Shown one piece after another: positions 20,101-23,100 of a stretch of DNA of 25,992 nucleotides. Made by a program: the position numbers. Source of the DNA: a virus (taxonomy: Duplodnaviria > Heunggongvirae > Uroviricota > Caudoviricetes); IMG/VR virus record IMGVR_UViG_2563366804_000005; one strand, given 5' to 3'. How positions within the stretch are numbered: the first letter of the stretch is position 1; each line of letters starts with the position of its first letter.

Positions 20101-23100
20101 CAGGCTGGATCTGGTGTTTGATACCGATCCGGCCTGCGATAAAGGAGGTGGTAATGCTGAAACAGAACGCGTGGTTTCGCGGCGAACCGAAGGCCAGTCT
20201 GAAGAATAATTCCTGGTTCAGGATGAAGGCGCGTCATAAAAGTGACGCAGATATTTATATCTATGACGAGATTGGTTTCTGGGGAGTTACGGCGAAGCAG
20301 TTTGTTAGCGATCTGAATGCGCTGGGTAATATCACTCACATTAATCTCCATATCAATTCACCGGGTGGCGATGTCTTTGAAGGCATCGCCATTTTTAATG
20401 CGCTGAAAACACATGGTGCGTCCATTACCGTTTATGTCGACGGTGTGGCGGCATCAATGGCGTCGGTCATTGCGATGGTGGGAAACTGCCTGCCGTGGCG
20501 GTGTGGCTGAGTGATGCTCAGTACACCGGAAAAATGACGGATGAAGATGACTGGCAGGCTGTTCTGCATATTGCCGTCTTCATCCGGGCACAGGCACCGG
20601 ATTCAGAGCTGGATATGTGGATGGAGAGCACCATTTTCCCTGCCCTGAATGATATACCGGCACTTTCCGGACTCATCGACACCCTGATCCCACTCGGTTT
20701 TAACTATCAACGTGATAATGAGATGGCCACCTGGGCGATGGCGGAAATCACGTACCAGATCACGTACACGAATTAAGGAGGTGGTAATGACCACACCAAA
20801 TCCACTGGCAAAGACGAAAGGTGCGGGGACGACGTTCTGGATGTATACCGGCAACGGCGATGCGTTTGCGAACCCTTTGTCGGACACTGACTGGCTGCGT
20901 CTTGCGATGGTGAAGGATCTGCAACCTGGCGAAATGACCGCTGATGCAGAAGATGACACTTATCTCGATGATGAAGATGCAGACTGGAAAACGACAACCC
21001 AGGGGCAGAAATCCGTTGGTGATACTTCGGCGACGCTGGCCTGGCGTCCGGGTGACAGCGGGCAGAAAAAACTGGTTCAGTTGTTCGACTCCGGTGAAGT
21101 CTGCGCGTTTCGTATCAAATATCCCAACGGCACTGTTGATGTTTTCCGTGGCTGGCTGAGCTCACTGGGTAAAACCATTGCCTCAAAAGACGTGATGACC
21201 CGCACTGTGAAAATCAGCGGTGTGGGGCGTCCGTATCTGGCAGAGGAAGGCACTGAAACCGTGAGCGTTACCGGGCTGACAGTATCACCGGCGTCTGCCA
21301 GTGTAAAAGTGGGAGCAACCACCACGCTGACCTTTACAGTAAAACCTGACGGAGCCAGTGACAAAGCGATCAGTGTGCATTCGTCAGATCCACAGACTGC
21401 CACGGTTACCCTGAACGGACTTGTGGCCACGGTAAAAGGCGTGAAGCAGGGCAGTGTCAGCATTGTGGGCATGACCGCTGACGGGAATTTTGTGGCTGTG
21501 ACTGCGGTGACTGTCAGCGCAGCAGGTTAACAGGACGATACTCATCATTTGCCCCGGTTATGCGGGGCTTTTTTGCAGGTGGAGAACATGATGTTTCTGA
21601 AACAGGACACGTTTAATTATGAAAAACAGTCCGTGGTGCTCAGTGAGCTGTCCGGGCTGCAGAGAATTGAATATCTGACGTTTGTTCAGCAGCGAACGGC
21701 AAAGTTTGATGCCGGGGAGGGAGAACTGCCGGAGGCTGAACGACAGATTGCTTTTCTGCGGATGGGGATGGATATCAATGCCTGGCTGGTTTCCCGCTCA
21801 CTGTGGAATGCGGATCAGTCTAAGGATGTAGAGACGCTTTGCGCATCCGTTATTACAACATGGTCGTATGATGCCCTGGGTGCGGGGGCGGAGATGGTTC
21901 TGTCGCTGAGCGGTATGGGGGCCATTGATAATGCCGTGGATGATGAGCATGAGGCGCTGACGCCGGAAAAGTCCTGACGCGGGAAATGCAGTTTGTCATG
22001 CGGCTTGCCCGGGAGTTCCGGCGGGCAGACTGGCGGCGGATGCTGTCGGAAATGTCGGCCACTGAGCTTGGTGAGTGGGGCGATTATTTCCGGATGCAGA
22101 GCTTCAGTGATGTGTGGATGGATGCGCAGTTTGCCTCGCTGAAGGCATTGATCGTGAGAATGGTGTCCGGCAGCAGTGATGCTGCGGTGGCTGATTTCAG
22201 TCTTTTACCGGAAGAGAACGGGATACCGGAGCGAACGGACGAAGAACTGATGCATCTTGGGGAAGGTATTTCCGGAGGTGTGCGTTATGGACCAGATAGC
22301 CAACCTGGTCATTGATTTGGGGATTGATGCGGCAGAGTTTAAAAATGAAATTCCCCGTATCAAAAACCTTCTGAATGGTGCAGCCAGCGATGCAGAACGG
22401 TCTTCTGCCCGTATGCAGCGTTTTATGGAGCGTCAGACTCAGGCCGCCCGGCAGACAACGCAGGCAGCTTCTTCGGCTGCAACAGCCGCATCCGTCCATG
22501 CGCAGACGGTGGAGAAGAACGCACAGGCTCATGAACGCATGGCCCGCGAGGTGGAGAAAACCCGCCAGCGCATGGAGGCACTGAGCCAGAAAATGCGCGA
22601 GGAACAGGCGCAGGCCATGGCTCTGGCGGAGGCTCAGGATAAAGCGGCTGCTGCGTTTTATCGTCAGATTGACAGTGTGAAACAGGCCAGTGCGGGGCTG
22701 CAGGAATTACAGCGTATTCAGCAGCAGATCCGACAGGCCAGAAACAGTGGCGGGATTGGTCAGCAGGATTATCTGGCGCTGATTTCTGAGGTTACTGCGA
22801 AAACCCGTGTTCTTACACAGGCTGAGGAAGAGGCTACCCGACAGAAAGTGGCGTTTATCCGTCAGCTTAAAGAGCAGGCAACCCGCCTGAATCTTTCATC
22901 TTCTGAGTTGCTTCGTGCTAAGGCAGCCCAGCTGGGGGTAAGCAGTGCTGCAGAAGTGTATATCCGCAAAATGGAGCAGGCAGGAAAAGCCACGCATTCG
23001 CTGGGTCTGAAGAGTGCAGCAGCCCGCCAGGAGATAGGCGTTCTGATAGGTGAACTGGCCCGCGGCAATTTAGGGGCGCTGTGGCAATATCAGCGACAAA

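Follow-up and report, generated by a model that had tools for sequence, protein, structure and literature searches.

The window, i.e. the whole 25,992-nucleotide stretch of DNA that was analysed (IMG/VR virus record IMGVR_UViG_2563366804_000005), is a lambda-like prophage of E. coli, colinear with, and ~99.96-100% identical to, the potB-adjoining prophage of E. coli O27:H7 B4103-1 and that of MB06101. In both genomes the element adjoins potB-potA-pepT, and the window itself ends inside the prophage. The structural genes for TerL, portal, protease-capsid, U and H survive as the pieces listed in Table 1, among which lie three deletion joints (joints 1, 2 and 3, from left to right) and the intact genes V, G and T. 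The prophage of F9792 (locus L005), which also adjoins potB, carries an uninterrupted terminase-to-J module and is colinear with the window save for three gaps in the structural region. Chromosomal integration, colinearity with a same-site prophage whose structural module is uninterrupted, and the loss or truncation of virion-essential genes together mark the element as a defective prophage.

Table 1. Features of the structural region around joint 2 (positions are those of the window)
Feature	Position	Strand	Evidence or remark
Large terminase (TerL) remnant, codons 1-463 of 700, ending at joint 1	18096..19486	+	
Portal remnant, residues 261-501 of 501	19484..20209	+	
ClpP-like prohead protease/major capsid fusion gene, N-terminal remnant, codons 1-111 of 686	20154..20486	+	F9792 identity, Pfam, RefSeq
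Codon TCA of the nucleophile Ser101, motif GVAASMAS	20454..20456	+	ClpP structure alignment, translation
Deletion joint 2, 3-bp microhomology AAC	20484..20486	none	3,104 bp absent
Tail terminator gene U, C-terminal remnant, residues 38-133 of 133 plus stop	20486..20776	+	L002 identity, Pfam, RefSeq
U DNA read out of frame by the protease frame, CLPWRCG then TGA	20487..20510	+	translation
Major tail tube gene V, intact, with C-terminal Ig-like domain	20787..21530	+	
Tail assembly chaperone genes G and T, intact	21591..22315	+	
Tape measure (H) remnant, residues 1-265 of 1,021, ending at joint 3	22287..23081	+	

To the left of joint 2, the remaining 111 residues of the protease-capsid protein were 100% identical to the F9792 fusion protein, and the frame 20154-20510 matched positions 4-97 of 182 of the Pfam CLP_protease profile (E 1.4e-16). 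The intact parent in F9792 is a single 686-aa ORF, in which Pfam placed CLP_protease at residues 20-191 and Phage_capsid_4 at residues 388-683. Alignment to solved ClpP structures, together with translation, identified the intact triad as Ser101 (GVAASMAS), His124 (MIHKP) and Asp172; His124 and Asp172 are encoded in the deleted DNA, and the window retains Ser101 alone. The protease frame then runs into U DNA and ends at a TGA (20508-20510) that lies 7 codons past the joint and 18 codons past the serine, yielding a stub of 118 aa in which the native start and the serine are kept and the histidine and aspartate are absent. Thus the triad is incomplete and the full ~180-residue Clp fold of a functional ClpP-family prohead protease is missing. 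In the RefSeq records of B4103-1 and MB06101 this piece (window 20154-20483) is a pseudogene, 'Clp protease ClpP, missing C-terminus'. A preliminary description of this DNA had the active-site serine region followed by a stop within about 10 codons: the serine region stands, but the ~7 codons to the stop are to be counted from the joint and not from the serine.

To the right of the joint, the U frame (20474-20776) matched positions 35-130 of 130 of the Phage_tail_U profile (E 2.9e-45; Pfam), and its 96 native residues (38-133), in line with the C-terminal ~95 residues of gpU that the same description had read in the overlapping frame, were identical to the intact U of 20Ec-P-124 (locus L002). 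The remnant lacks the native ATG, its sole in-frame start being a GTG at 20495; neither the full ~130-residue domain nor the own start codon of a functional gpU (PF06141) is present. RefSeq lists window 20474-20776 as the pseudogene 'gpU phage tail terminator, missing N-terminus'.

At the nucleotide level, when the window was aligned with uninterrupted protease and U genes from a related prophage, the change of parent fell at GGGAAAC/TGCC. Both parental sequences carry the AAC found at window 20484-20486 (three-way alignment; BLAST against F9792 and against DS26-1, locus L006): the left parent can be aligned up to 20486 and the right parent from 20484 onward, so that codon 111 of the protease/major-capsid gene meets codon 37/38 of U. 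The joint is clean, with zero filler bases and a 3-bp overlap, and its 30-bp flanks share imperfect similarity only (GATG..GGAAC). As judged from the spacing in both F9792 and DS26-1, 3,104 bp are gone, a length of the form 3n+2; the protease and U frames therefore differ, a chimeric protein is not made and the two genes are joined at the DNA level only. An in-frame protease-U chimera was accordingly rejected, both on the deletion length and on the stop 7 codons past the joint. Joint 2 thus falls inside the range (20470-20500) in which a junction of a ClpP-like prohead protease with the gpU C-terminus had been proposed, and alignment of the two fragments to intact homologues, the check suggested at that time, returned a clean switch of parent with 3,104 bp missing. 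With match lengths and identities beyond chance, the protease-to-U deletion joint is confirmed as real.

Measured against F9792, the interval deleted at joint 2 comprises the coding sequence for residues 112-686 of the protease-capsid protein (including His124, Asp172, the linker and the capsid domain), the genes for a cement protein (PF09956), for a Gifsy-2/FII-like protein of head-tail attachment and for gpZ, and U codons 1-37. The preliminary description, which had listed the protease C-terminus, head completion, tail completion and the U N-terminus as missing, agrees with this interval; it was also right about the loss of the capsid, but not about separate scaffold and major capsid genes, the parent being one fused 686-aa ORF. 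The 18 structural proteins encoded by the F9792 prophage were all run as tblastn queries against the window and against the 42-kb loci of the two complete genomes (L001 and L004): W, the cement protein, the FII-like protein, Z, M, L, K, I, J and Lom were absent, and what matched was the set of truncated pieces together with V, G and T, which are intact. A relocated capsid gene, which would have spoken against the earlier reading, was not found in the window, L001 or L004; nor did the window or these two loci hold homologues of the genes of the deleted interval, and the RefSeq feature tables agree. With the capsid domain deleted and none elsewhere in the element, the earlier claim that it is unable to build capsids is upheld; on its gene content, the element is incapable of making heads, packaging DNA or completing tails.

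The two other joints are of the same form. Joint 1 is a clean TA at 19485-19486, where 1,703 bp are missing relative to F9792 (terminase residues 464-700, a W-like gene and portal residues 1-260); joint 3 is a clean TG at 23080-23081, where 9,136 bp are missing relative to F9792 (M, L, K, I, J and Lom, along with residues 266-1,021 of the tape measure and the beginning of the tail fibre gene). Taken alone, the 3-bp microhomology of joint 2 is weakly above chance (P ~0.05); the chance that three joints each show an overlap of at least 2 bp is ~0.004 under a random-joint model. The AAC, TA and TG overlaps, the filler-free joints and ends that carry neither an IS element nor a long repeat are the marks of microhomology-type deletions, and three joints with overlaps of at least 2 bp thus fit microhomology-assisted illegitimate recombination.

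The terminase breakpoint of joint 1 (...GGCCAGCTA, ending at codon 463) was reused to the nucleotide by two other, different deletions, the equivalent positions being 19485-19486 in the window, 6200-6201 in locus L014 and about 6201 in locus L015. In ETEC4073 the terminase is joined to a tail-fibre gene at the codon-463 breakpoint (TACCGGGGCTTTG), and in ET881, in a Qin-like prophage at ydfI, it is joined ~224 codons further into a tail-fibre gene (CCGGAGTCGG); the uninterrupted terminase sequence across this breakpoint reads GCTATCCGGAAG. The shared breakpoint could mark a hot spot for deletion, or it could be due to chance, given how many prophages are defective. The recurrence at joint 1 hints that breakpoints in prophages of this kind may be non-random. 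For joint 2 the opposite was seen: a check for other deletions reusing its breakpoints returned none.

At joint 3, codon 265 of the tape measure gene is linked to the interior of the tail-fibre region. The ORF to the right of it (23081-24553, 490 aa) had zero Pfam matches, and RefSeq gives no annotation for the equivalent 1.7 kb of F9792, which follows a tail-fibre pseudogene flagged 'missing C-terminus'; the ORF may represent a C-terminal domain of a tail fibre that is so far uncharacterised. The right end of the prophage holds an intact class I SAM-dependent methyltransferase gene (25001-25669, - strand), enclosed by two fragments of tail-fibre-assembly genes (24827-24924 and 25876-25973; 85% mutual identity over ~100 bp).

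Comparison with related prophages showed that the two sides of joint 2 differ in their closest relatives. On the left, window 19485-20486 was 100% identical over 1,002 bp to L005 19999-21000, i.e. the portal and protease genes of F9792. On the right, window 20484-23081 was 98.0% identical to L005 24102-26699, with 52 mismatches concentrated in gene V (20813-21582), and 99.9% identical over 2,598 bp (3 mismatches) to the U-V-G-T-H genes of 20Ec-P-124, whose left flank reached 84.6% identity. DS26-1, the second strain besides F9792 whose prophage has this module uninterrupted, holds both flanks in one prophage, at 99.3% (left) and 99.8% (right) and with the same 3,104-bp spacing. An intact prophage 100% identical on both flanks was not found. 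The stretch 20484-23081 thus displays mosaicism around joint 2. At a different chromosomal site, a related prophage in E. coli EC21Z-078 (L003 12554-14040) has a protease lacking its C-terminus joined directly to a V lacking its N-terminus, with further deletions in T, K and J; this independent protease-to-V deletion indicates that phages of this family have lost the head module more than once.

Each of the three joints was present in the same two of 5,426 complete E. coli genomes, B4103-1 (a USA isolate) and MB06101 (a Galapagos seawater isolate), which were sequenced independently and are identical at joint 2; intermediates with one or two of the three deletions were absent from these 5,426 genomes. 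Beyond complete genomes, the exact 118-aa junction ORF was listed in 97 index blocks of public assemblies, and the junction 41-mer was present in 7 of the 7 places shown (24 contigs read), covering NCBI isolates, ENA human gut metagenomes and Logan assemblies. The 41-mer had 0 matches in a one-genome-per-species collection, a result that is uninformative because E. coli is represented there by a single genome. A literature search on strain B4103-1 gave an unrelated methylation paper and nothing else.

Several versions of the locus were encountered. Loci L010, L012 and L013 carry the same three joints plus a fourth deletion, from within the tape measure remnant (window 22925/22926) to just before potB, through which the methyltransferase gene, both fragments of tail-fibre-assembly genes and the 490-aa ORF are lost; this further deletion indicates that erosion continues. 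In the window, a 2,693-bp unit occurs twice in tandem (9600-12292 and 12293-14985), and the two copies differ at a single position (12268 versus 14961). By colinear RefSeq coordinates, the duplicated unit holds the end of a DUF968 gene, rusA, antiterminator Q, a holin gene, most of a DUF1327 gene and four tRNA genes (Ile, Lys, Thr and Gly). Its joint lies inside the ORF 11998-12600; the duplication is absent from B4103-1 and MB06101 and is either a recent event or an assembly artefact. MB06101 has an IS21-family element, ISEc62 (istA, istB), in the lysis region (L004 14693-16816), with a 5-bp overlap relative to the window that is an apparent target duplication; the equivalent window position (~16216-16220) is without the element. 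With the duplication present and the IS21-family insertion absent, the window is thus a third version of the locus.

Joint 2 is very probably the scar left where 3,104 bp were lost spontaneously from within the late (morphogenesis) operon of a lambda-like E. coli prophage. Under this model, codon 111 of the protease/capsid gene would have been joined to U codon 37/38 at the AAC microhomology, most likely through illegitimate, microhomology-assisted recombination, whether by replication slippage or by end joining after a break, a mechanism that we infer from the form of the joint. Being out of frame, the deletion leaves two dead fragments, the 118-aa protease stub and the start-less piece of U. 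In combination with the terminase/portal and tape measure-to-fibre deletions, it renders the element unable to form heads, package DNA or finish tails, and the resulting cryptic remnant has very probably been inherited vertically in one E. coli lineage, where it is still eroding.

The same joint might instead have arisen from two elements, through illegitimate recombination of one lambdoid prophage with a different one resident in the same cell, or of a prophage with an infecting phage, and the finding that the best matches of the two flanks are in different genomes (F9792 on the left; 20Ec-P-124, ahead of F9792, on the right) favors such an origin. Yet DS26-1 combines both flanks at the expected spacing, which makes a mosaic single parent plausible; the genes stand in precisely the order and orientation that a simple deletion would leave; and the first mismatch to F9792 on the right is found 91 bp beyond the joint, not at it. 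We therefore consider the two-element origin improbable, and the outcome for the prophage is the same under either route. Far less probable still, to the point of being nearly negligible, is that joint 2 is an assembly or sequencing artefact such as read collapse between two prophage regions: lambdoid prophages are repetitive and often misassembled, and the window does carry the tandem duplication that its two closest complete genomes lack, but 3 bp of common sequence at the joint is too little for collapse, and the identical joint recurs in B4103-1 and MB06101. Misassembly, named in the preliminary description as a way in which the reading could fail, was rejected on these two complete genomes and on the seven further isolate and metagenome contigs from NCBI, ENA and Logan.

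A separate question is whether the remnant, however formed, is kept because it is useful. The surviving pieces might protect the host against incoming lambdoid phages, with the 118-aa stub (which still has its own start codon and the N-terminal, oligomerising half of the Clp fold) and the intact V-G-T as candidates that might poison head maturation or tail assembly; alternatively, the element might persist as a helper-dependent satellite that another prophage packages. V, G and T are indeed still intact, the remnant is widespread in one lineage, and some defective O157 prophages are still packaged via the proteins of co-resident prophages (PMC2669165). Against this, ~100% identity to functional prophages gives no sign of selection for or against the remnant; truncation affects the large terminase and the portal as well as the tape measure and the tail tip; the sub-lineage with the fourth deletion is still losing DNA; and a related helper prophage was not found in B4103-1 or MB06101, each record giving one place for portal, protease, U and V queries, i.e. 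no second related copy, at megablast sensitivity. Usefulness of the remnant as a whole is thus very unlikely, and retention of the stub and V-G-T for protection is equally hard to credit. Decay after a spontaneous internal deletion remains our reading of the locus.

Both fragments at joint 2 are already annotated as pseudogenes in RefSeq, and the feature is of a well-known kind, the product of routine prophage decay. The prophage is a dead remnant and does not belong in any count of active or inducible phages. The locus offers a nucleotide-exact case of stepwise prophage erosion through short-homology deletions, with three joints and a fourth in a sub-lineage; beyond correct annotation its importance is small.

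Compared with its intact counterparts, the protease remnant shares its first 111 residues with the 686-aa protein of F9792, a fusion gene that RefSeq names by product in lambda-like E. coli prophages, but 16% of that protein remains here, the deletion having taken the linker and the capsid domain as well as His and Asp of the catalytic triad. Similarly, the U remnant is identical over residues 38-133 to U of related prophages and, like Lambda gpU (PF06141), keeps its place just upstream of V, whereas the first 37 codons, the start codon and the upstream partner gene Z of an intact gpU are all absent. On the scale of the whole element, the closest parallels are cryptic lambdoid prophages such as Sp3-Sp15 of O157:H7 Sakai and Qin, Rac and DLP12 of K-12, which are likewise integrated and have internal deletions that affect packaging and morphogenesis genes; in O157 Sakai, deletions, frameshifts and IS insertions are reported in the morphogenesis genes of most of the lambdoid prophages (PMC2669165). 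As in these prophages, regulatory, lysis and some tail genes persist in the present element, the left part of which carries the Qin/Rac-type genes dicB and ydfA-D. What sets it apart from the cryptic prophages of Sakai and K-12 is lineage-specific, namely the potB-adjoining site and the three particular deletions, and mechanistically it does not differ from them.
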